The notes under the pieces: model-generated
The model's input: the letters and a program-made list of their open reading frames with translations, nothing else
Database searches by the model: none
Told to the model about the DNA's origin: nothing
Made by a program: the position numbers and the translations under genes
Assembly: GCA_007376145.1 (NCBI GenBank)
Contig: VMFP01000002.1
Coordinates: 8,679-72,678, forward strand
Origin: Parcubacteria group bacterium Gr01-1014_38
GTDB taxonomy: Bacteria; Patescibacteriota; Andersenbacteria; UBA10190; CAIZMI01
DNA length: 64,000 bases
Direction: 5' to 3'
Part shown: positions 1 to 33,160 of the stretch, piece after piece
Layout of the letters: the number at the start of each line of letters is the position of its first letter
How positions within the stretch are numbered: position 1 is the first letter of the stretch

Positions 1-940
1 CGGCTCCGAGACGCTCCATGCCGCGGATAAAGCCGAAGAGGATATTGCCCGTGCCGAGCGGCAGGATGATGTAGACCTTCGCCGATGCCTTGCCCGTCTT
101 TCCCAGCTCATCCCGCAAAAACGTGAGGCACTGCTGCGCCAGGAGAGAGTACATAAAGATGCCCACACCGTCCCAGCCATCGGTGACCTGCCAGTGTCCT
201 TCCCGTTCAATCCTCTCGCCCGCCATGGCAGCGACCACGTTGTAGAGCTGCTCCCGTGACAGGATCGCGCCGGCACCTGTGGAGATGGAGGTCACTCGGC
301 AATAGGGACCGCGCAGCTCCATCCTCATGTCGAGAGGCGTGGAAGCATCCACCAGGCAGTAGACCGTTTTCCGTTTTTTGGGCGGCACTGTGGCGTTCCA
401 GCGTTTGACCAGCTTCGCCAGGCTGAGTCCGGCGTTGCCGGCCGTCCAGAGTGCCAGGTGCTGAACGTCATGCTCGATCGCTTGAGAGAGCACCGCCCAC
501 GAGCGGAGGTCTTTGTGGGTGCCGGACCAGGTGTACGGGGACATATCCAAAACCCATGTTCCCCCAAGGCCCGAAAAGCGAGCCAGGTGCTCCATTTCGA
601 AGAGCGCCGGCTGGCCGCAAGGAACATGCAGCTTGGCCTGGAACAATTCTTTGAGCGCATCTCTGGGTTCCTTGAGACGGCCGCGTGACCGGAGTAGGAG
701 GTCTCTGCATCCATATTGAAGTAGTACTTCAGGAATGTCCTTGGCCTCCGGAATAATCGTGACGAAGCTCGAAGCCAGTTCAGCTTCTGCGATGGGACTG
801 AAGAATTCATGGCTCCGGTAACGGTTCATGCAGGTTGTGCAGAGAGCGTCGTTCGTGCGGTACGGACGCTCGAGCGACTTCCTGCACACCAGGCACCACG
901 CTTGCCAGTTCTCGTTGAACTCGAATCCCAATTCAGCCAT
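1..940 (-). CDS. PLP-dependent threonine synthase-like enzyme with an N-terminal CxxC...CxxC zinc ribbon. Only the 5' part is in the window; the gene runs off the left edge.
   Basis: My translation of the minus strand from the ATG at 938-940 (preceded by GGAGG) gives MAELGFEFNENWQAWCLVCRKSLERPYRTNDALCTTCMNRY...TWSGTHKDLRS...WTAGNAGLSLA... with no stop down to position 1. SGTHKD resembles the fold-type II PLP lysine motif (TGSFKDR). The track omits this ORF because it is edge-truncated. Confidence 0.55.
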   Translation of the reverse strand, partial: MAELGFEFNENWQAWCLVCRKSLERPYRTNDALCTTCMNRYRSHEFFSPIAEAELASSFVTIIPEAKDIPEVLLQYGCRDLLLRSRGRLKEPRDALKELFQAKLHVPCGQPALFEMEHLARFSGLGGTWVLDMSPYTWSGTHKDLRSWAVLSQAIEHDVQHLALWTAGNAGLSLAKLVKRWNATVPPKKRKTVYCLVDASTPLDMRMELRGPYCRVTSISTGAGAILSREQLYNVVAAMAGERIEREGHWQVTDGWDGVGIFMYSLLAQQCLTFLRDELGKTGKASAKVYIILPLGTGNILFGFIRGMERLGA

Positions 941-1479
941 GAGAAAATCCTCCAAGAAGGGGGTAGGTTCGTTGATTTTCAAAGGACAGGAAGATACCGC
1001 GAACCGAGACGATAGCAAATATCCGTCAGTCGGTCAACAGTCGCAGTGTGCTCAACCGAAAAGCCACGAAAGATCGAGGAAGTCCAGAAGAAACGAGACA
1101 TGAGACGACCCTTTTTAGAGTGTCTCATTTGTCTCATTTCCCTCGTGGAAGCCCCGACCCACGTGCCTCAAACCGCCTCTTGAAAAGGTCTCGAAAAAAG
1201 CTCTACGCTGACCAACAATCCCGGGTACTGAACCTGGGTGGCCCGCCATTCGACTCGCGTGAGCGAGAAGAATGACCCTGAGCGACGAGCGTAGCGAAGG
1301 AGTTCACTCCGAGCGGAGTCGAGGAGTCGAAGGGCCAAGATCCTTTGTCGCTCACGCTCGCTCATGGTAAACCAGGAATACTTTTTATCGGCAGACCTAA
1401 GCACTTAATACTCACCAGAAGGGATGTATTTAACCAACTTATTATCAGAGAGTATCGTCAGGTTGAGGCATTCTCTCGC

Positions 1480-2055
1480 ATGAAAAGAAGCAAAAGAACG
1501 TGTGAGTGGCCGGCGGGAGATACACTGATGGTGAAGTATCACGACGCGGAATGGGGCGTTCCGGTCCACAACGACCGGACGCATTTTGAATACCTCCTTC
1601 TCGACACCATGCAAGCGGGGCTCTCGTGGAGGACCATCCTGCACAAGCGCGAGAACTTCCGGAAGGCGTTTGACCGATTCGATTTCCGAAGAATTTCCCG
1701 CTACGGCCGAAAGGATGTTCAGCGGCTGCTCCGCGACGCTGGCATTATCCGTAACCGGCTGAAAATTCTCTCTGCCATTGAAAACGCGAAACGATTCCTG
1801 GAGATCCGCAAGGAGTTCGGCACCTTCGACCGCTACATCTGGCAATTCGTCGGTGGGAAGCCGATCCGGCACCGATTCCGGTCACTCAAGGAGTTGCCGG
1901 ATCGGACCAAAGAGTCCGACGCGATGAGCGCGAATTTAAAGAAGCGCGGTTTCCGCTTTGTCGGCTCTACGATCTGCTACGCCTATATGCAGGGGGCGGG
2001 GATGGTGAACGATCACGTTGTCGGCTGTTTCCGAAATCGAGGACCGTCGCGTTGA
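1480..2055 (+). CDS. tag: DNA-3-methyladenine glycosylase I
   Basis: MKRSKRTCEWPAGDTLMVKYHDAEWGVPVHNDRTHFEYLLLDTMQAGLSW matches the Tag N-terminus (CxW..YHDxEWGxP). The track ORF starts upstream at 1345; the internal ATG at 1480 matches the family start. Confidence 0.8.
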   Translation: MKRSKRTCEWPAGDTLMVKYHDAEWGVPVHNDRTHFEYLLLDTMQAGLSWRTILHKRENFRKAFDRFDFRRISRYGRKDVQRLLRDAGIIRNRLKILSAIENAKRFLEIRKEFGTFDRYIWQFVGGKPIRHRFRSLKELPDRTKESDAMSANLKKRGFRFVGSTICYAYMQGAGMVNDHVVGCFRNRGPSR

Positions 2056-2271
2056 AGGAACATCGGAATCAATAAAGAGGGTTTGGCATGGTACAGTAGC
2101 CTTTCGGTTTTAGGATCGCCTTGCCGAAAGGAGATTTTTTTCGGTACAATATCTTCGCGCGCTTTCATTCCGTGTGCTCGTATCTTTGTCCTGCTGTAGC
2201 AGGACAAAGATACGAGTTCGGGGTGTCGGCCACCGCCGACGCCCCATCGGAGGCGCTTCGTTTCACTTCGC

Positions 2272-2346
2272 GCGCTCGTAGCTCAGCGGTAGAGCAGGGG
2301 CCTCTTAAGCCCAAGGTCGCAGGTTCGAATCCTGCCGGGCGCACCA
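2272..2346 (+). tRNA. tRNA-Lys (anticodon CTT)
   Basis: Cloverleaf: acceptor GCGCTCG/CGGGCGC (one G.U pair), D-arm GCTC-AGCGGTA-GAGC, anticodon loop CTCTTAA, T-arm GCAGG-TTCGAAT-CCTGC, discriminator A plus an encoded CCA. Close to E. coli tRNA-Lys. Confidence 0.85.
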
Positions 2347-2352
2347 ATAGTT

Positions 2353-3270
2353 ATGTACAGATATCATCATCCCACGCCGATTGTGATAAAGCTCACTGAC
2401 GAGCTTGGTTTTCAATTGAGACAAAAAGCAGCGGAATATGTTGCCGCTAATCAGAATCGAACAGGGGCGGAAAGAGGAAGCTCGGAAGAGCAAGGGTTTG
2501 GCGCGCTTGCAGAAATGGTTGTTCGAAATAAACTCGGAATGCCTGAAATTAACCCCGAAAATCATCCGCTAGGATACGATATTCTGTTACCATCCGGCGT
2601 AAAGTTGGACGTGAAGTGCCGCGGTGGGGCGCTAGCATTCAAGGAAGAATATGAAAGTAGTGATGGGATAATGAGAGAGGCCAAGCATAATTTCTTTGCA
2701 CGTCAAATCCATGATGAAGAATTGGATACTGAAATTTACTTAATGACCCACCTCGAAACACCAAGCAACCGCGAACTTCCCGGCACGACGCGACAAAGGA
2801 AATGGATAGTCTACATCTGCGGCTGGGTATCGAAAGAACGAGTTGTACGAGAAGGCGTTTACCTGCCGCGCGGCTCCCTAACCGAACAAGGCAGGACTTG
2901 GTTCACTTACCGAGGACAAGAAGTAGAATTCTATAACCGCAATCTGAACGGCCTAGAAAAGATAGAGGATTTGTTGAGTATTGAGCGTACTGATATTGAA
3001 AAAGACAAGCACCACCAAGGCGATTTGAATCTAACCTCCGTTGATGCAGTGCGAATCGTTTACGACCTCATTGGTCGCGGTGTGCTCTCAGAAAAACACC
3101 TTGCCTTTGTTCAGAAAGAAACTGGCCTGGCCAAAATTGTGAAGCCGATTTTACACTCAAATCAGTATTTCCACCTTCTGAATTGGCTCAAAGGAAAAGG
3201 TGTGTTGACTGATAGTGAAATTAAAAAAGCGCAGCAAATTCTCCAAGAGGAGCCGTATAGCGGAATCTAA
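2353..3270 (+). CDS. Putative type II restriction endonuclease (PD-(D/E)xK-like), the convergent partner of the methyltransferase
   Basis: 305-aa ORF in a low-GC stretch. GYDILLPSGVKLDVKC fits a D...(D/E)xK nuclease motif. Its 3' end overlaps the MTase gene by 4 bp. No family assignment is possible from sequence alone. An alternative start is the MVVRNK methionine near 2514. Confidence 0.4.
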   Translation: MYRYHHPTPIVIKLTDELGFQLRQKAAEYVAANQNRTGAERGSSEEQGFGALAEMVVRNKLGMPEINPENHPLGYDILLPSGVKLDVKCRGGALAFKEEYESSDGIMREAKHNFFARQIHDEELDTEIYLMTHLETPSNRELPGTTRQRKWIVYICGWVSKERVVREGVYLPRGSLTEQGRTWFTYRGQEVEFYNRNLNGLEKIEDLLSIERTDIEKDKHHQGDLNLTSVDAVRIVYDLIGRGVLSEKHLAFVQKETGLAKIVKPILHSNQYFHLLNWLKGKGVLTDSEIKKAQQILQEEPYSGI

Positions 3271-4403
3271 AATAGCTTTAGTTTGTTGCTCTCTGCCTTG
3301 TATTGAGTTTCAGCTTCTTTAATACGTTGTTTGGAAACCTCGATGTAATCAACCTTGTGCTTTTTGAAGAGATACACTTCTTGATTTTTCTCAACACCAA
3401 TAAATTTTCTTCTCTCCAGAACTGCCGATACAAGAAAACTACCGCTTCCACAAGCGTTGTCTAATACAATATCGCCTTCCCTTGTGAAGGTTCGGATCAA
3501 GTAACGGCCAAGTTCTATTGGTTTTTGCGTTGGATGATAAACTTCTCCTTCGCTTTCGGCAGTTTTGAAATAAATAACATCAGTTGGGTATCGTTCGCCA
3601 TTGCTTTTCACCTCGACAGTTTTGAAATCGCCATAACTACCCGTTAACTGATCCTTTCTAAAACCTTTATTGTAAGGTTCGCCATTGCTCATTTGAGGAT
3701 TGTACGTTGGTTGGCTCTTGTAAAAGACGAGAACATCCTCATGCTTCCTCAGCGGTTGTTTTTTTGCGTTCAAGAAATTTGTCGGTTTTGACTTAACCCA
3801 CGTTATTTTATATTTGAAAATTTTTGGATTAGAAAGCATCAAGGTAGCGGTAAAAAGTCCTTGCGCCGTGAGGACAATAACTCCTTCGTCTTTAACAATT
3901 CTTTCGTAGTGCAGCCATAGTTGGTCAAGCGGAATCACGCTATCCCAGTGATTTTGCGTAGTGCCATAAGGAAGATCGCACAAAATCATGTCTATTGATT
4001 TTGCGGGAACGCCTTTCATTATTTCCAAACAATCACCCTCAAGTATTTTATTTTCAAAATGAGCAATCGTCTTTTTGCTTTTAACCTCTTCGGCTTTCGG
4101 CTCTTCTACGCCGAGATTTTTACGCAGATACCATAAACAGTAGGTATTGACCGGCAATCCTTCTTGTTGTGCGCGTTGTTCAAGTTCCAAATAGGAATTT
4201 GTTCTTAACAGGTTACGTAGTTCGTTGCTTCCGAGATCGGCGATGCTTTTATATACATCTTTGTTTCTTGAGCCAAAAGCTAAGATAAACCCCTTTGCTT
4301 TCAGGTTCGCTTCCTTGTAGTCGGGGAAGTACACTGCTTTGAAAATCTGATTACTCGGCATGAATGTATTATAGTATGATACCCACGGATTTTCCATTGG
4401 CAA
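3267..4403 (-). CDS. DNA methyltransferase (N6-adenine/N4-cytosine, beta-class, PF01555-like)
   Basis: Motif IV CDLPYG (DPPY-like) comes before motif I DNACGSGSF, and HPTQKPIEL is the PF01555 signature. Low-GC composition. Confidence 0.8.
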   Translation of the reverse strand: MPMENPWVSYYNTFMPSNQIFKAVYFPDYKEANLKAKGFILAFGSRNKDVYKSIADLGSNELRNLLRTNSYLELEQRAQQEGLPVNTYCLWYLRKNLGVEEPKAEEVKSKKTIAHFENKILEGDCLEIMKGVPAKSIDMILCDLPYGTTQNHWDSVIPLDQLWLHYERIVKDEGVIVLTAQGLFTATLMLSNPKIFKYKITWVKSKPTNFLNAKKQPLRKHEDVLVFYKSQPTYNPQMSNGEPYNKGFRKDQLTGSYGDFKTVEVKSNGERYPTDVIYFKTAESEGEVYHPTQKPIELGRYLIRTFTREGDIVLDNACGSGSFLVSAVLERRKFIGVEKNQEVYLFKKHKVDYIEVSKQRIKEAETQYKAESNKLKLF

Positions 4404-5104: not shown

Positions 5105-5163
5105 GCCGTGTAGGCTCTTCCACCAGCATACCGCGAAACGTCCTCACGTGCGGAATCGGCTTC

Positions 5164-5916
5164 TTATCCGCGCGCCACGACGGCCGCCCAGAGCTCCTTC
5201 GCTCCCGCAGATGCGAGCACCCCGGCGGCGGCCTCGAGCGTCGCGCCGCTTGTGAGGACATCATCCACGAGCACGAGGCGCGGCGGCGGAGGGTGCGGCA
5301 CGCCGGAGCGGAGGGCAAAGGCGCGCGCAACGTTCTGGCGGCGAACCGCCGCACTTCCCAGGAGGCTGGTCTGCGGCGACGTAGACCGCGTGCGAAAGAG
5401 GAGGGGTGTCACCGGAAGGCCGAGGTGCATTCCCATCGCCTCCGCGAGGAGCTGCGCTTGGTTAAACCCGCGGGCGCGTTCACGCCGGGGATGGAGCGGA
5501 AGGGGGACCAGAGCGGGAAGAGCGCCGTCGGGCGACTGCCGAAGCAGTCCCGCAGCCGCGATTTTCCGCGCGAGGAGGTCACCAAGCGGGCCGGCAAGAG
5601 CGCGGACTCCGCGGAATTTGAATGTCGAGATGGCGGAGCGGAGAATGGGATCTCGGTAGAGCCCGACGGCGACGGAACCCGCGAGCGGCGTGCGCGGGAG
5701 GCAGGTGTAGCAGGTGCGTCCCGTCGGGGCACGGAGACCGCACACGAGGCAGACCGGCGCATCAGGGGTCAGCCGCTGGCGGCAGGCGGCGCACAGCCAC
5801 CGGCCTGCCTCGTCGGTGGACGTCTCCTGGTACGTTCCGCACCCGACGCAGGCGATCGGGAAGAGGAGATCGAGGACGGCCCGCGCGGTGGAACGGACCC
5901 CCGCGCGGAGACTCAT
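5164..5916 (-). CDS. comFC: ComF family phosphoribosyltransferase (competence protein ComFC)
   Basis: N-terminal zinc finger CVGCG...CAACRQR...CLVCG...CYTC and PRTase motif LVLVDDVLTSGATL. The start is either MSLRAG at 5916 or the upstream Met at 5940. Confidence 0.7.
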   Translation of the reverse strand: MSLRAGVRSTARAVLDLLFPIACVGCGTYQETSTDEAGRWLCAACRQRLTPDAPVCLVCGLRAPTGRTCYTCLPRTPLAGSVAVGLYRDPILRSAISTFKFRGVRALAGPLGDLLARKIAAAGLLRQSPDGALPALVPLPLHPRRERARGFNQAQLLAEAMGMHLGLPVTPLLFRTRSTSPQTSLLGSAAVRRQNVARAFALRSGVPHPPPPRLVLVDDVLTSGATLEAAAGVLASAGAKELWAAVVARG

Positions 5917-27925: not shown

Positions 27926-28000
27926 CGCCGGGTGGAGAAGTGGCATCTCGCCAGGCCCATAACCTGGAGATCGCGGGTTCAAATCCCGCCCCGGCCACCA
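27926..28000 (+). tRNA. tRNA-Met (CAT) with initiator-like features: unpaired C1:C72 and A11:U24
   Basis: Acceptor CGCCGGG/CCCGGCC, D-arm GAGA-AGTGGCA-TCTC, anticodon stem-loop CCAGG-CCCATAA-CCTGG, T-arm GCGGG-TTCAAAT-CCCGC, discriminator A plus CCA. Coordinates are +/-1 because of a one-base inconsistency between the displayed text and the ORF track. Confidence 0.7.
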
Positions 28001-28165: not shown

Positions 28166-28240
28166 GGCTGGGTAGCTCAGTGGCAGAGCATCGCACTCAT
28201 AAGGCGAAGGTCGTGGGTTCGATCCCCACCCCAGCTACCA
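28166..28240 (+). tRNA. tRNA-Met (CAT), elongator type (could alternatively be tRNA-Ile2 decoded via lysidine)
   Basis: Acceptor GGCTGGG/CCCAGCT (G1.U72), D-arm GCTC-AGTGGCA-GAGC (C11:G24), anticodon loop CTCATAA, T-arm GTGGG-TTCGATC-CCCAC, encoded CCA. Confidence 0.8.
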
Positions 28241-28242
28241 AA

Positions 28243-28282
28243 GAAAAAAGGCCGTGTCTCGAATAATCGAGGCGTGCCTATC
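28243..28282 (-). terminator. Imperfect hairpin plus T-run (read on the minus strand) ending the minus-strand island operon, abutting the tRNA-Met 3' end
   Basis: The minus-strand reading ggcacgcctcgattattcgagacacggcc is followed by tttttt. Confidence 0.3.
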
Positions 28283-28296
28283 AAGGAGAGCAGAAG

Positions 28297-28479
28297 TCAT
28301 CCTTGAGTTAGTTCGAGAAGCGACCGAAGGTACTGCTCATATTCAGGTCGTAGGCGAAGGTACTCCTTTACCCACTCTTCGGCGGCTTCGGGGTATTCAA
28401 TGGCCGCCACACACTCTTCAATCGTCGGCAGGCGGTCATGAGGAAAGTTCGTCTTCAGGTACTTTTCCAGGATGCTCAC
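28297..28479 (-). CDS. Small acidic hypothetical protein (60 aa), GTG start
   Basis: ORF in the low-GC island, translationally coupled to the upstream 235-aa gene by a 3-nt gap. Confidence 0.35.
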   Translation of the reverse strand: MSILEKYLKTNFPHDRLPTIEECVAAIEYPEAAEEWVKEYLRLRPEYEQYLRSLLELTQG

Positions 28480-28482
28480 GGT

Positions 28483-29190
28483 TTATTCTCCTGTGGTTGA
28501 GGGTTGGCGGCTCATGTACTTCTCAAGAATCTTTTTCGCCGCATCGTAGTCAACGTGCTCTGCAGCGGGTGGCCCCGCGCGGAGACCTGCTGCTAGGAGT
28601 AGTTCCAGGTGCTCACGCGGCACAGTGTGCAGCGTATCAGCATCAACCACTGTCTCGGCTCGCCAGGCGAAGGGGAGGTCTTTCAGCGCAGTGGTCAGAG
28701 TGGTACTAATACTCACCCGTGCGTGCAGGCGTTCAGTCCAGTCGTGTATGTTCTCTTCATTGTGGCGTTGGAGGCTGCGGTGCAGCCGCAGAGCGGCAGC
28801 CAGTGCTGTGTGAAGTGCCTTGTCGCCAGTGAAAAGCGCAACACAGGCATCCTGCCATACACGATACTGTTCGGACTCCATCTCAAAGGCGGGCAGTGTG
28901 TCGCGGGTGTCTAGGACAACACCGTCGTGCCGTCGCAGTGCGTAGTAGCAGAAGTGGTAGAAGGTTTTGTCTTTCTGCTCAATCGCGAGCAAAACATTTT
29001 CGCAGGGGTTAGCGAGAAGATGTTCGCACCGTTCTGGTGCTCCATCTTCAGCAACTACTATCGCAGCACTATAGCCTTGCGGCGTTGCCTGGCGACTCTT
29101 TTCTTCCAAACGTTCCGCGACCTGAGCGAAGTTCTCCCTTCCTGCCAAAACGAGATACGGACGCAGGTTGGCGTGAAGTTGGCCACTCAT
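28483..29190 (-). CDS. Hypothetical protein (235 aa)
   Basis: Low-GC island ORF. No recognisable motifs. Confidence 0.45.
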   Translation of the reverse strand: MSGQLHANLRPYLVLAGRENFAQVAERLEEKSRQATPQGYSAAIVVAEDGAPERCEHLLANPCENVLLAIEQKDKTFYHFCYYALRRHDGVVLDTRDTLPAFEMESEQYRVWQDACVALFTGDKALHTALAAALRLHRSLQRHNEENIHDWTERLHARVSISTTLTTALKDLPFAWRAETVVDADTLHTVPREHLELLLAAGLRAGPPAAEHVDYDAAKKILEKYMSRQPSTTGE

Positions 29191-29597
29191 TTGTATTCTC
29201 CTGTGAAAGAACGTGTGTTTTATCGGTCTGTTTTTATCCTACTGTCATAGTATGGCGTGGTCATTCAATAAAGCAAGGAGTTTTGTTTTTGGATGGCTAC
29301 CCTAAAACGCAAGAGGCTACCCCCGTTGGGGGGAGGGTACCCCCACCATAGGGGGTGGTTCCAAACCACTTTCAAACTCCAGATGGGTGCGGCACTATGA
29401 GAGTTGAGGGGCAGGCTTCAGCGTACCAACGCCACTAAAGATGTCCTTCAAATCGGCTAACTCCTTGCATAACCTGTTCCAATGAGTTCTCATTACGTCT
29501 ACCAACGTAGATTTTCGCTTCGGGAAGTGCTAAAAAAGAGTTACCTGGTCGTTCTTTTGCCAACCACATACCTCAAACAAGCGAGAGGAGAACCCTT

Positions 29598-30179
29598 ATG
29601 CAGCTTGTCCAAGACTACCGTATCCGTGAAGTGCACGGCACGCACTTCTCAAATGCCCCCTTCCGGTTTCTGCTGGAAACCGTCACTGACGGCTTTCCCA
29701 AAGACGCAGGCGAGCTAGTGTTCGACAAGGAAACGTGCGAACGGCATGGCATTTCACCTTCCCTTGATCTGGTGAACCGCAAACTGCGCTGTACGCTGAG
29801 GCCTCGTGTTCTCAAACGGAACACTGGCGGTCGTAAAGGCGATGAATGGTCGTTCCCTGATAGGCAAGACGTTCAGTCTGACGATATACTCATCAGTCAG
29901 ATCAGACGCGATGAAAAGTGGACACCCGAGTACAACGTCGGCGCGCCCCACGATGCCTTGAGGCAGGAGATCCATTACCACCTCTACGCCTACTCGGATG
30001 ACGGCACGGATGGAATCCACCCTTCACCAACCAACTGTCCGCTGTACAATCTCACGGTTGAGCTAACAGAGGATCAGTTTAGGGAGTGTACACAGTTTGC
30101 CCCTGGCACGGTGCTTAATGTCAGCTTCGCTCTGCTTCCGCCCGAACCCAAGCCAGCTACCGAAGAGGAGAAACAATGA
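29598..30179 (+). CDS. Hypothetical protein (193 aa)
   Basis: Low-GC island ORF with an RBS GAGAGGAGAA before the ATG. No recognisable motifs. Confidence 0.45.
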   Translation: MQLVQDYRIREVHGTHFSNAPFRFLLETVTDGFPKDAGELVFDKETCERHGISPSLDLVNRKLRCTLRPRVLKRNTGGRKGDEWSFPDRQDVQSDDILISQIRRDEKWTPEYNVGAPHDALRQEIHYHLYAYSDDGTDGIHPSPTNCPLYNLTVELTEDQFRECTQFAPGTVLNVSFALLPPEPKPATEEEKQ

Positions 30180-30535
30180 ACTGGCCAGCTGAGATTTTCG
30201 ACGCTTTCTCAGAAGCAGTAGACGTTGATCCTGTTCCTGGCAGTAGTAAAGAGGAGGTTATCCAGTATCTCCTTGTCGAAACCGCGCGACGAGCGGTCTG
30301 GCGAGCGAAAGCTGATCCCACTAAGCTCGATGCTGCCTACCGTGCGCCTTACACGCCACTAGGATCAGTGAGTGTCGAGGGAATGATCAGCAAAGGTCTC
30401 AAAGCCAAGAGTATGACGATCAAGCCCGCCTGGCATGAAGCAGTGGATCGTCTCTACGCTTTCGTGGCTGACAACCCTCAACTGATCTGCGATCAGTTCA
30501 AGGATCAGCAGGTTGAGTACTGTGATGCAATCTGA
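30176..30535 (+). CDS. Hypothetical acidic protein (119 aa)
   Basis: Overlaps the upstream stop (ATGA). Followed by the terminator. Confidence 0.45.
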   Translation: MNWPAEIFDAFSEAVDVDPVPGSSKEEVIQYLLVETARRAVWRAKADPTKLDAAYRAPYTPLGSVSVEGMISKGLKAKSMTIKPAWHEAVDRLYAFVADNPQLICDQFKDQQVEYCDAI

Positions 30536-30542
30536 TCATACA

Positions 30543-30575
30543 CCGCCAAAGCAAGAAGCAGAGGCGGTTTTTTTA
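30543..30575 (+). terminator. Rho-independent terminator CCGCC-N15-GGCGG followed by TTTTTTT
   Basis: Seen in the sequence. Confidence 0.45.
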
Positions 30576-30791
30576 TCTACGCGTTATTGTAGGCCAGCGC
30601 GTATGTGCCTGACATTAATCTTTCTCTGAACCGCCACATTCGCTCCATCGAGCGTAGAATCGAGTTCAATTTTCTGGTAACGTGGGCTACCATGAGACAG
30701 ATTTGAAGTGAAACGCAGCGGACGGAATTCCCGTATTCCGCGTTGCGACGATACCCCGCCGTCGGCCCTACCATTGGAGTAACGTAGAACT

Positions 30792-31472
30792 ATGCGACTC
30801 TCTTCACGTCCTGTTGAAACCTTTTTCCAAACCTGGACGCCGGAAATGGCGTATGTCCTCGGGTATTTTGCCGCCGATGGTTATATGTACCGCAATCCAC
30901 GCGGGTCACATTATGTCGGCTTCGTCTCCACTGATGAGGAACTTGTCCGTCTGGTCCGGTCGCTGATCGGCACCTTGAACAGCATCGAGGTTTACCGGCC
31001 AAAGAATAAAAACTGGAAGACCCGATACACGCTGCAGGTTGGAAGTCGGAAGATTTTTGAAACACTCAGTGATCTCGGATTTTCTCCCGCTAAGAGCCTC
31101 ACGGTGTCCTTTCCGCTTGTTCCCCTTTCCGTGTTATCGCACTTCGTCCGAGGATATTTTGACGGTGATGGGTGTTTGTCCTTCGGCACCTATGCGCGAA
31201 AGAACCGGAAAAGCAAAGCACAAGTCCTGTTCGCACGGTTCATCAGCGGCAGCGAGTATTTCCTCAAGGGTTTGCAGTCTGCTCTCCTGCTCGGGGAAAT
31301 CGGTCCGGGATCACTGGGACACCACGGGAAAAATTTTCGTCTTCAGTACGGGATGCACGATTCGTTCCGCCTATACAAATTGATGTATCCGACTTATGCT
31401 GTTCCCTGCCTTCTCCGAAAGCGAGAGAAATTCGAGCGAGGCCTCGTAGTAATGTCCGGGCCGGTCGTCTAG
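30792..31472 (+). CDS. LAGLIDADG homing endonuclease (two-motif, monomeric type)
   Basis: Motif 1 LGYFAADGYMY and motif 2 VRGYFDGDGCLSF at the typical ~100-aa spacing. The stop codon TAG (31470-31472) lies inside tRNA-Asp. Confidence 0.7.
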   Translation: MRLSSRPVETFFQTWTPEMAYVLGYFAADGYMYRNPRGSHYVGFVSTDEELVRLVRSLIGTLNSIEVYRPKNKNWKTRYTLQVGSRKIFETLSDLGFSPAKSLTVSFPLVPLSVLSHFVRGYFDGDGCLSFGTYARKNRKSKAQVLFARFISGSEYFLKGLQSALLLGEIGPGSLGHHGKNFRLQYGMHDSFRLYKLMYPTYAVPCLLRKREKFERGLVVMSGPVV

Positions 31473-31535
31473 CCTGGTTCAAGACGCCTCCTTGTCAAGG
31501 AGGAGACCACGGGTTCAAATCCCGTCCGGCCCGCC
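31457..31535 (+). tRNA. tRNA-Asp (GTC)
   Basis: Acceptor GGGCCGG/CCGGCCC, D-arm GTCT-(11-nt loop)-AGAC, anticodon stem-loop CCTCC-TTGTCAA-GGAGG, T-arm ACGGG-TTCAAAT-CCCGT, discriminator G plus CCA. Confidence 0.85.
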
Positions 31536-31540
31536 AGAGT

Positions 31541-33160
31541 TCAAAAGCGGTCGCGCACTTCGTAAATCGTTGCGCGGCTGGGTTCTTTCTTCCGCGCCTG
31601 CGGGTACTCGAACGTGCCGAGTGCCAAGAATTGATCCGCGAATCTCGGATCGACGAGAACGGGAAACGCCTCGCTTATGGTTCCACGGATGACGATATAC
31701 CGCACGTCCCACCGCTGGAGTTCTTGCCATTGCTCCTGACCGCTCGGAGTGTTCAGATGTGTTTCCGCAAAGACGGCTCGGCCTTCATCTTTCTCTCCAA
31801 AAAGGGCCAGCACAATACTGGAGCGGTGTTCGAAGGCAATCGTGCCGGGCAGCGCTCGCGCCGCCTGGATTGCTTGGTAGTATGCGTAGTCCGTTCCAAG
31901 ATTTTTCTGTTGAACTTCGCGGGCTTCGGCGGCCGTGTGCGCGGTCCACGGTCCGAGCGAGAGTCCGAGGAGGAGTACGCCCGCAACCATCGGCGCTGCT
32001 CGCGAGGCGCGTGGCCAGCGGAAGCTGACTTGTCGGACGGTCTGGATGGCTGCCTGGACTCCGGCAGCAAGCACCAGAAACAGCACAGGATAGAGCATCA
32101 CAAGGAACCGCTGGCGCACGCCCCACCAGGCGATCGGAACCGCAAGAAACAGAAATGGCAGAAGAATCAGGAGGAACCGCCGCAGGTGTCTGCGTGCGAG
32201 GAACACGATGCCCGCAAGAAGCAGGAGACTGGGGAATTCCTTCGGGTCGGTGAAGAAGGAGCGAAGTCGCGCCGGCCACGCGCGCGCCTCGAGCGTCGCG
32301 ATATCGCGAAGGATCCGCGGGGGCTCCCCCCACAGGCGGTCCACGCCAACGCTGGTCCAGATGGCGGCGTAGTTCTTTGAGAAATCGGCGAGCGTCGTCA
32401 CACCGAATGGCGTGGCCTCCGCGTCAGCAAAGTATTCCACGGGGAGCAGCGGCCGTCCGACGCGCGTGAAGAGCAGAGCGAACGGCAACCAGCAGACGAC
32501 CGCGGCCGCCAGCGCCGGTTTCATCAGGGAGCGTGGCTTCCAGTACACCAGCGCCAAGAGCGGAAAGAGTGCGAGGAGAAAGACTCCTTCAAAACGCGCG
32601 AGGGACGCCAGGGCAAAGAGCACTCCGGTGCCGATCGCGCCGCGGCGCGTTCGCGTTCGGAGGAACGCCAGCAGCGCGCCGAGGAACAACGCGATGAACG
32701 TCGTATCGGCGTATCCCCGCACGGATTGAAAGAGGAACGGCGCGACGGCCTGGAAGGGAGCGAGACCAACAACCAGTGCGACGTTCGAAAGTCCAAGTGT
32801 GCGTCCGAGGAAATAAAGCAGCGCGATCGCTACTAAGGACGCAATCATCGCGACCGCGATGGCCGCGCCTTCCCAGTCGAAAACCGTGTGGGCGAGCGCG
32901 ATGAGCGCGGGGTACACTGGCAGTCGCTTTTCCGCGACCGGGTACGAGCCTTTCAACAGTTCCTGCGCGATCAGAATGAAGTTGTAGGTATCGCCGCCCG
33001 GAAACGCTTTCCACCAGCGGAAAAACGCGATGCGGTGGGCAAGGGCGAGACCGAGAACCACGAAGAGACCCCCGTGCCTGCGGAGAAACCGCGCGCCCCC
33101 TGCGCCTACCAAGGCCAGGGACGCAGACGTTGCGGGGGCAAGACGCATGGAGATGAACAT
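31541..33160 (-). CDS. Polytopic membrane glycosyltransferase (GT39/GT83-like, ArnT/PMT family)
   Basis: More than 10 predicted TM helices with the N-terminal loop architecture typical of C-type lipid-linked-sugar glycosyltransferases. A weak assignment. Confidence 0.5.
   Translation of the reverse strand: MFISMRLAPATSASLALVGAGGARFLRRHGGLFVVLGLALAHRIAFFRWWKAFPGGDTYNFILIAQELLKGSYPVAEKRLPVYPALIALAHTVFDWEGAAIAVAMIASLVAIALLYFLGRTLGLSNVALVVGLAPFQAVAPFLFQSVRGYADTTFIALFLGALLAFLRTRTRRGAIGTGVLFALASLARFEGVFLLALFPLLALVYWKPRSLMKPALAAAVVCWLPFALLFTRVGRPLLPVEYFADAEATPFGVTTLADFSKNYAAIWTSVGVDRLWGEPPRILRDIATLEARAWPARLRSFFTDPKEFPSLLLLAGIVFLARRHLRRFLLILLPFLFLAVPIAWWGVRQRFLVMLYPVLFLVLAAGVQAAIQTVRQVSFRWPRASRAAPMVAGVLLLGLSLGPWTAHTAAEAREVQQKNLGTDYAYYQAIQAARALPGTIAFEHRSSIVLALFGEKDEGRAVFAETHLNTPSGQEQWQELQRWDVRYIVIRGTISEAFPVLVDPRFADQFLALGTFEYPQARKKEPSRATIYEVRDRF

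Follow-up and report, generated by a model that had tools for sequence, protein, structure and literature searches.

A predicted LAGLIDADG homing-endonuclease gene that ends within tRNA-Asp(GTC) in a Parcubacteria group bacterium, and its relatives at the same tRNA leader

Homing endonucleases are usually thought to survive inside self-splicing introns or inteins. The gene studied here apparently has a different refuge: the few transcribed, dispensable nucleotides between tRNA genes, where the tRNA supplies the stop codon. It lies in a 64,000-nt stretch of DNA from Parcubacteria group bacterium Gr01-1014_38 (contig VMFP01000002.1, positions 8,679 to 72,678; hereafter the window), and was first pointed out in a reading of the sequence alone (the sequence-only reading). 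The gene encodes a LAGLIDADG protein and overlaps the tRNA-Asp(GTC) gene downstream of it. This address was apparently kept across hundreds of species of the candidate phyla radiation (CPR).

The closest analogue of the CPR gene appeared to be SegB of phage T4. The free-standing GIY-YIG gene segB lies between tRNA-Arg and tRNA-Ile, and its product is reported to target the tRNA intergenic region of endonuclease-less relatives, in intronless homing with co-conversion (PMC2988022). Like segB, the CPR gene fills a spacer between two tRNA genes and is present in some relatives and absent from others. On the other hand, the CPR enzyme is of the LAGLIDADG and not the GIY-YIG type, and its gene resides in a cellular chromosome instead of a phage. 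Also unlike SegB, the CPR site is conserved over a whole bacterial radiation, the ORF (open reading frame) commonly overlaps the downstream tRNA, and the system is known here from sequence.

The CPR enzyme resembles I-Tsp061I, I-DmoI/E-DreI and the Tli VMA intein enzyme in its two-domain fold, a catalytic acidic residue per helix and LAGLIDADG_3 domains. Those archaeal enzymes are encoded inside rRNA introns or inteins, whereas the window gene has its own start and stop. LAGLIDADG genes are also described as common in the group I introns of CPR 16S and 23S rRNA genes, and one has been shown to be active (PMC11270868, PMC11809585). These enzymes are of the same phylum and superfamily, but they sit within rRNA at conserved sites, whereas the tRNA-Asp family lies outside any intron. 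tRNA goes unmentioned in the paper on the CPR rRNA introns (PMC11270868).

Collaborative homing by free-standing phage enzymes and introns has been reviewed (PMC3984707). An arrangement comparable to that of F-CphI and the psbA intron of cyanophage was found in about 30% of the CPR family; most members, the window included, differ from it in being intron-less with an intact putative target. I-Ssp6803I, of another fold family (PD-(D/E)XK), is likewise a bacterial homing enzyme with a tRNA-gene niche. It is intron-encoded and targets the anticodon region, in contrast to the window gene, which is free-standing and upstream of the tRNA. Its gene lies in the group I intron of Synechocystis tRNA-fMet (work cited in the reference list of PMC3984707). 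WhiA combines a bacterial LAGLIDADG fold with a helix-turn-helix (HTH), and the long forms of the CPR family carry an HTH too. WhiA lacks the catalytic aspartates. In the CPR family they are kept; its long forms have their HTH at the N terminus, and the window protein has none.

Earlier work has already described endonucleases with free-standing genes, homing without introns, and LAGLIDADG genes within the rRNA introns of the CPR (PMC3984707, PMC2988022, PMC11270868). Neither a LAGLIDADG lineage addressed to the tRNA-Asp leader in hundreds of CPR species nor the habitual taking of a stop codon from tRNA nucleotides in such a lineage was found in the literature searched, whose coverage was incomplete. 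If confirmed, this would be a cellular LAGLIDADG counterpart of SegB. Its sites, some occupied, some empty and some decayed, would also form a natural series in which the life cycle of an endonuclease could be followed in uncultivated bacteria, and new meganuclease specificities might be obtained from it.

The endonuclease gene and its overlap with tRNA-Asp

Pfam LAGLIDADG_3 matched the 226-aa window protein in two stretches (E=2.7e-14), and a profile from 28 homologues found I-Tsp061I, an archaeal intron-encoded enzyme (PDB 2dch, E=1.5e-6). An AlphaFold model from the 28-homologue alignment (predicted local distance difference test, pLDDT, 94.5; predicted template modelling score, pTM, 0.90) showed the alpha-beta-beta-alpha-beta-beta-alpha topology twice, which is the tandem two-domain fold. 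Its best PDB neighbours by Foldseek included I-Tsp061I (2dch, E=3.3e-10), E-DreI, the Tli VMA intein endonuclease, I-AniI and the bI3 maturase. The top 50 PDB matches were LAGLIDADG enzymes or maturases without exception; identity to the archaeal intron- and intein-type enzymes among them was only 16-21%.

Catalytic D29 was kept in 100/100 family cores, as were G30, G127 and K101, and catalytic D126 in 99/100. The window ORF was full length against its homologues (100% coverage) with every invariant residue present, and this copy is intact. By sequence and model, the gene encodes a complete monomeric two-domain LAGLIDADG homing endonuclease with a predicted intact active site. The protein is identical to a public entry, 'putative DOD family homing endonuclease' of Parcubacteria group bacterium Gr01-1014_38, and its annotation as a DOD-family endonuclease is already on record. 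The nearest other database relative was only 57% identical.

Two other assignments of the protein were rejected. Its weak NCBIfam matches were to the endonuclease part of intein-bearing archaeal proteins. Pfam found LAGLIDADG domains only in the 226 aa, with no Hint/intein domain and no flanking extein sequence, which excluded an intein-associated endonuclease. A domesticated protein of the WhiA type was excluded by the score of the LAGLIDADG_WhiA Pfam model (14.7 bits, under the 23.2 cut-off), by the retained catalytic Asp and by the lack of a C-terminal HTH in both Pfam and the AlphaFold model.

The sequence-only reading had described a two-motif LAGLIDADG ORF ending at the TAG at 31470-31472 inside tRNA-Asp, and the ORF list, Pfam, ARAGORN and Rfam confirmed it. 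Its placement of the stop 14 nt into the tRNA was approximately right; the exact overlap is 15 nt including the stop, which 12 tRNA nucleotides precede. The stop is made of tRNA nucleotides U13-A14-G15 (D stem/loop), and the last four codons of the ORF, G-P-V-V, are read from the acceptor stem and the start of the D arm. Homologues shared tRNA-derived C-terminal peptides of this kind (GP, GPVV, GS and GLEV).

With its own ATG and TAG, the gene is free-standing and joined to the 5' flank of an intact tRNA (65.2 bits), as had been proposed. The earlier failure to identify a group I intron core was also borne out. At E<=10, Rfam detected neither a group I nor a group II intron in 30000-32000, and only the tRNA reached the gathering cut-off. 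A group I intron-encoded endonuclease was rejected, since no Intron_gpI match was present in that region and the tRNA-Asp is uninterrupted. Even in intron-bearing relatives the ORF lies outside the intron, upstream of exon 1.

Occupied, empty and decayed sites across the CPR

A protein search returned 951 relatives, mostly from CPR genomes, in two length classes of about 225 and about 310 aa, the longer with an N-terminal HTH. A scan of one genome per species found a relative in at least 513 species, and the best 80 were examined. tRNA-Asp(GTC) started -103 to +72 nt from the ORF stop, on the same strand, in 78/80 of these best-matching species genomes, nearly all of which are from the CPR. 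This count takes in L035 (loci are cited by our own labels), whose tRNA-Asp was mis-called as His by ARAGORN. In L033, L073, L077 and L086, which are cut by contig ends, there was no downstream tRNA to score, and in L046 a tRNA-Val intervenes between the gene and tRNA-Asp. The upstream neighbour varied (usually one or two tRNA-Met, else tRNA-Val, PolX in Daviesbacteria or, in the window, an island), while the downstream neighbour, tRNA-Asp, was constant. As a control, tRNA-Asp adjoined 0/80 distant relatives on viral contigs (27-38% identity). A phage origin was rejected, as viral contigs held distant relatives only, none of them beside tRNA-Asp.

The stop codon lay within the tRNA in 47/71 intact species-level copies. 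Overlap with the tRNA is not confined to this locus; in a large CPR family it is the most frequent arrangement. Its modes were -10 nt (stop U8-A9-G10) and -15 nt (stop U13-A14-G15, as in the window). The ORFs of P0007 and P0037 end 22 and 15 nt inside tRNA-Asp, and a few family ORFs read through most of the tRNA. That of L001 ends inside a tRNA-Asp split by an anticodon-loop insertion of about 200 nt, where ARAGORN saw no tRNA.

A metagenome scan was made with the 3' half of the window-type tRNA-Asp, by which loci were picked independently of the endonuclease; its counts cover tRNA-Asp loci with enough upstream sequence. Among loci of the same tRNA type, the gene was present in 19, a remnant in 2, and 37 were without it. 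The empty sites were tight arrays of tRNA-Met, tRNA-Met, tRNA-Asp and often tRNA-Arg, with AT-rich Met-Asp spacers of 8-23 nt; L108, L132 and L102 have tRNA-Met, then 18-21 nt, then tRNA-Asp. Comparison with loci lacking the ORF had been suggested earlier as a way to define the insertion site, and it places the insertion in this spacer. In L115 and L164 the ORF alone fills the spacer, 12 nt after tRNA-Met and 11 nt before tRNA-Asp, and there is therefore no room for a promoter of its own.

The two remnants (L148 and L158) have a spacer of 137 nt, which aligned to the first 113 nt (102/110 identical) and the last 27 nt (25/27) of the L115 insert. This spacer is therefore the L115 gene with a 555-nt internal deletion. 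Nonsense copies with TAA were found in L032 (the same allele in metagenome contigs L109, L111 and L126) and L077, and the otherwise intact copy of L051 has an in-frame TGA. Empty sites, the deletion remnant and nonsense copies in relatives indicated that the gene is dispensable and that it degenerates and is lost as a selfish endonuclease gene would be expected to. In L088 a TGA replaces the invariant Gly84, which would fit a UGA=Gly code in the host rather than a pseudogene. L069 was rejected as a broken copy, being intact with a GTG start.

An immunity polymorphism was sought in tRNA-Asp, and no consistent difference was found between occupied and empty loci. L128 (occupied) and L112 (without this gene) have identical tRNA-Asp sequences. 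Therefore, any sparing of the own genome would not be due to differences inside the tRNA. The simplest remaining option for self-sparing would be the disruption of a site that spans the spacer and the tRNA 5' junction.

The window copy differs in composition from its surroundings. GC is low from about 28250 to the tRNA, at 0.517 in the endonuclease gene (GC at third codon positions, GC3, 0.586) and 0.52-0.56 in the island ORFs, against 0.62-0.65 (GC3 0.70-0.79) in the surrounding genes. In the protein tree, a neighbour-joining tree without support values, the window protein clusters with L003 and L010 (52-54% identical) and the Daviesbacteria clade (49-54% overall). It is 39-44% identical to the enzymes adjoining the same GGGCCGG-type tRNA-Asp. 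The foreign GC and the grouping apart from same-tRNA-type enzymes point to horizontal acquisition of the gene in the window lineage.

Another pair of loci, L020 and L034, was 84% identical in nucleotide sequence across the gene, tRNA exon 1, intron and T arm (protein 87% identical). The homology stops at the acceptor 3' strand, which leaves L034 with a G5·A68 mismatch and the two with unrelated downstream flanks. Gene conversion may have ended at this boundary; a conversion tract of that kind would lend indirect support to the cutting of endonuclease-less alleles and to preferential inheritance of the gene. Mixed bins could also account for L034, as L013 and L034 come from the same metagenome-assembled genome. 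The L020 and L034 contigs were labelled as different CPR phyla.

The sequence-only reading had suggested that the gene homed into, or is maintained by, the tRNA leader. The tie to the leader held in the light of empty, occupied and decayed sites. Conservation of the position over deep lineages and a protein tree that mostly tracks host and tRNA type point to long-term residence more than to frequent long-range jumping.

Proposed maintenance at the tRNA leader and rival explanations

The explanation that we favour, at a probability of roughly 0.7, is a free-standing selfish gene for a LAGLIDADG homing endonuclease, resident in the 5' leader of tRNA-Asp(GTC) and part of a large CPR family. It builds on the observed identity, fold, active-site conservation, positional rule, empty, occupied and decayed sites, and compositional anomaly. 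The product would be an active nuclease, with a target that is probably the junction of the spacer and the tRNA-Asp 5' end, and homing, co-transcription with the tRNA and competition with RNase P would be parts of its life. The typical home site is the spacer of about 10-20 nt between tRNA-Met and tRNA-Asp in a tRNA operon. From there, repair of double-strand breaks would copy the gene into alleles of this site that lack the endonuclease, in SegB-like intronless homing. After its spread among close relatives it would co-diverge with the host, with occasional inactivation and deletion.

As the insertion is essentially the ORF alone in a tiny spacer, the original stop could easily be lost, and translation would then end at the first in-frame stop from conserved tRNA nucleotides, U8-A9-G10 or U13-A14-G15. 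The position of the stop inside the tRNA is best read as a by-product: an ORF was squeezed into a spacer of about 20 nt, and whatever its frame, these conserved nucleotides stop it within a few codons. In most relatives the gene would ride on the tRNA operon transcript, since there is no room for a promoter. In the window a 2.3-kb insert separates the gene from tRNA-Met, and a promoter in 30536-30791 is therefore presumed. The stop codon would be cut off when RNase P cleaves at tRNA +1, such that complete protein would come from the unprocessed precursor only. This would keep nuclease levels low.

It is doubtful, in our estimate, that the stop inside the tRNA has a function of its own. In that case each precursor would yield either the endonuclease mRNA or tRNA-Asp but not both, and the dosage of the enzyme would be tied to tRNA-operon processing. 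The RNase P cut would turn the message into a non-stop one, subject to rescue and to degradation of its product, and translating ribosomes would unfold the tRNA 5' end. Such coupling, or another host benefit, would let the lineage persist at one tRNA leader across the CPR, alongside a second, HTH-bearing family that nests before tRNA-Met likewise.

Several observations weigh against a selfish homing gene. The spacer split by the insertion is AT-rich and poorly conserved, an odd target for an enzyme of about 20-bp specificity. For the window copy no promoter was identified, with no plus-strand sigma-70 consensus in 30536-30791. The three assemblies of the species (window, L008 and L009) all have the gene in identical form, with no within-lineage polymorphism. 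In the protein tree, which mostly follows host and tRNA type, branches are long (about 40-60% identity); the position holds over the entire CPR radiation, and loss of the active site is very rare. A host-beneficial, domesticated gene would persist in the same way.

The main rival is a domesticated LAGLIDADG host factor, inherited vertically since early CPR evolution and kept with tRNA-Asp for its service to that gene. It might act as a DNA-binding tRNA operon regulator, as a maturase for the tRNA-Asp group I intron or in recombination/repair. It would suit the conserved position in 78/80 species over many CPR lineages, a protein tree that roughly tracks tRNA and host type, and, in about 95% of species, an undamaged ORF whose core residues are invariant. 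The extra N-terminal HTH domain in half of the family, the bI3 maturase and the bifunctional I-AniI among the structural neighbours, and the intron in the adjoining tRNA at about 30% of loci also speak for it. We nevertheless consider it unlikely. Close tRNA operons are without the gene or have only the 137-nt remnant, and nonsense copies exist; because of these empty sites, remnant and nonsense alleles, an essential host role is disfavoured. The known domesticated relatives WhiA and bI3 maturase have lost the catalytic aspartates. Both are kept in the CPR enzyme, and the WhiA Pfam score is sub-threshold. There is no intron to splice at 70% of loci, the window included, and the window copy lies within a compositionally foreign island. 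A conserved, non-mobile gene in orthologous genomes was what the sequence-only reading had named as evidence against itself: the deep positional conservation agrees with such a gene, yet the empty and decayed sites do not.

In collaborative (trans) homing, the enzyme would cut intron-less tRNA-Asp at U35/C36, the ORF-less intron would give immunity, both would move together, and the window would be a copy that lost its intron. The mechanism is documented for free-standing phage enzymes (PMC3984707), and here the tRNA-Asp anticodon loop has an insertion at 23/76 loci, 8/17 insertions match Rfam Intron_gpI, and the end of the gene is within about 25 nt of the insertion site, which would make co-conversion easy. 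Against this, two thirds of the enzyme-carrying genomes, that of the window included, have an uninterrupted tRNA-Asp. Their intact anticodon arm can equal the spliced exons (the uninterrupted stem-loop of L054 is identical to the spliced exons of intron-bearing L080), and such an enzyme would therefore cut its own genome. The introns are also scattered over the protein tree with intron-less sisters, as in L011/L004 and in L054 within an intron-bearing clade, and introns of a similar kind interrupt tRNA-Arg, -Leu, -Met and -Thr genes nearby, tRNA introns being generally common there. We judged collaborative homing quite improbable and do not think that it is the general mechanism; at the window its defining arrangement is absent, since the tRNA-Asp has no intron (ARAGORN, Rfam). 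Chance adjacency or an annotation artefact, with an unrelated or decaying ORF reading into the tRNA, is hardly credible. Any ORF that enters a tRNA soon meets the U8-A9-G10 or U13-A14-G15 stop, and the stop alone needs no special explanation. The ORF is full length with all invariant residues, however, and the same juxtaposition recurs in 78/80 species and in independent assemblies, while viral relatives lack it; these comparative data refuted it.

Neighbourhood of the window gene, tRNA introns and further loci

Table 1. Positions of the features in the window and in related loci
Locus	Feature	Position	Strand	Basis or remark
Window	Endonuclease ORF, 226 aa	30792-31472	+	ATG to TAG; ORF list with translation
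Window	LAGLIDADG motif 1, LGYFAADGYMY	30858-30890	+	aa 23-33, catalytic Asp29; translation
Window	LAGLIDADG motif 2, VRGYFDGDGCLSF	31146-31184	+	aa 119-131, catalytic Asp126; translation
Window	tRNA-Asp(GTC), intact, intron-less, CCA encoded	31458-31536	+	ARAGORN; Rfam RF00005, 65.2 bits over full model
Window	Overlap of ORF 3' end and tRNA, 15 nt	31458-31472	+	Acceptor and D arm; codes G-P-V-V-stop
Window	tRNA-Met(CAT), first of two	27926-28000	+	ARAGORN, Rfam; part of conserved tRNA-Met / endonuclease / tRNA-Asp neighbourhood
Window	tRNA-Met(CAT), second copy	28166-28240	+	ARAGORN, Rfam; in relatives the endonuclease gene usually starts 3-130 nt after it
Window	Low-GC insert, 2.3 kb	28241-30535		Between tRNA-Met and endonuclease gene; relatives have just 3-130 nt there
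Window	Island ORF, 235 aa	28483-29190	-	ORF list
Window	Island ORF, 193 aa	29598-30179	+	ORF list
Window	Island ORF, 119 aa	30176-30535	+	ORF list
Window	Terminator-like hairpin and T7 run	30542-30574	+	After ORF 30176-30535; -11.9 kcal/mol, z=-1.67, weak evidence
Window	Non-coding region, 256 nt	30536-30791	+	Upstream of endonuclease gene; GGAG 12 nt before ATG
L034, L020	Compared stretch	L034 631-911 vs L020 883-1166		
L001, L004	PolX-PHP gene, upstream, divergent	L001 2176-3936; L004 2168-3943		Also L011, L014, L018
L034	PolX-PHP gene, downstream	911-2713		Unit in opposite orientation relative to PolX
L001, L011, L035	Split tRNA-Asp(GTC), ORF-less group I introns	L001 4930-5205; L011 3669-3944; L035 3728-4007		Also L013, L020, L024, L056, L069, L072, others
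L035	Insertion in tRNA-Leu (CAA)	1438-1734		
L041	Insertion in tRNA-Met	5150-5471		
L024, L042	Insertion in tRNA-Arg	L024 4985-5237; L042 4501-4765		
L098	Insertion in tRNA-Leu (AAG)	2640-2932		
L089	Insertion in tRNA-Thr	2570-2830		
L098, L148, L151, L112, L147	Second HTH family genes	L098 2996-3691; L148 5827-6546; L151 5078-5788; L112 382-1107; L147 87-809		

The second tRNA-Met of the window lies 2.55 kb upstream of the endonuclease gene. The three island ORFs between them had no match in Pfam, PHROG, NCBIfam or PADLOC. The 539-aa membrane protein downstream had none in Pfam, PHROG or PADLOC, and only a weak glycosyltransferase-like match in NCBIfam. The terminator-like hairpin may separate the upstream ORFs from the endonuclease gene, and the 256-nt non-coding region that contains it is presumed to be the promoter and 5' untranslated region of the endonuclease-tRNA-Asp unit in this genome. 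This region showed no significant fold (z=-0.42), and no remnant of the N-terminal HTH of the longer homologues was detected in it (best tblastn E about 0.3). A Caulobacter small RNA (CC2171) at 30241-30399 was a weak Rfam match (22.6 bits vs a gathering score of 75) and was taken as chance.

The tRNA-Met 3' end (28225-28244) is repeated at 30147-30166 (20 nt, 85%), either an att-like scar or chance. No second tRNA-Asp 5' end and no att-like repeats were found on either side of the ORF; apart from the T arms that tRNAs have in common, the repeat search gave short matches, this one among them, that are probably due to chance.

The insertion in tRNA-Asp lies between U35 and C36 (…CCTGT|CACGG…) and is 196-234 nt long in the 23/76 species-level loci that carry it. 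The 17 insertions compared with Intron_gpI were those covered by two Rfam searches, and the eight matches scored 35-55 bits (E 5e-11 to 2e-5). Default ARAGORN missed the intron-split tRNA-Asp genes entirely; its 'tRNA-His with intron' in L035 was rejected, being tRNA-Asp with a mis-set intron boundary. If confirmed, the arrangement would also bear on annotation, as default tRNA finders miss the ORF-tRNA overlaps and the intron-split tRNA-Asp genes.

By ARAGORN, other tRNAs in these CPR loci also have anticodon-loop insertions of about 180-290 nt (Table 1). Those in the tRNA-Leu of L035 and the tRNA-Met of L041 reached the Rfam group I gathering score, and tRNA introns seem common in this phylum. 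In L077, ARAGORN called a tRNA-Ile(AAT) with a 1470-nt intron at 946-2505; the call may be spurious, or the intron may contain an ORF.

A PolX-PHP DNA polymerase gene was a constant neighbour of the endonuclease-tRNA-Asp unit in Daviesbacteria-type genomes. Among the viral relatives, 3/80 lie in large phage tRNA arrays (L252 and L262, about 3001-3357; L248, 3001-3654), between tRNA-Lys and tRNA-Gln or just before tRNA-Trp, positions that echo T4 SegB.

A second family of about 230 aa has an N-terminal HTH_23 domain like that of the long endonuclease forms, and an unassigned C-terminal domain with, by eye only, a LAGLIDADG-like helix (LFIAGxAMYWSEGY). Its genes end 3-8 nt before, or inside, a tRNA, which is tRNA-Met (tRNA-Asp in L112). 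In the CPR, such genes seem to nest in tRNA leaders generally. The product in L148 ends in QGSSVG-stop, read from the D arm of tRNA-Met.

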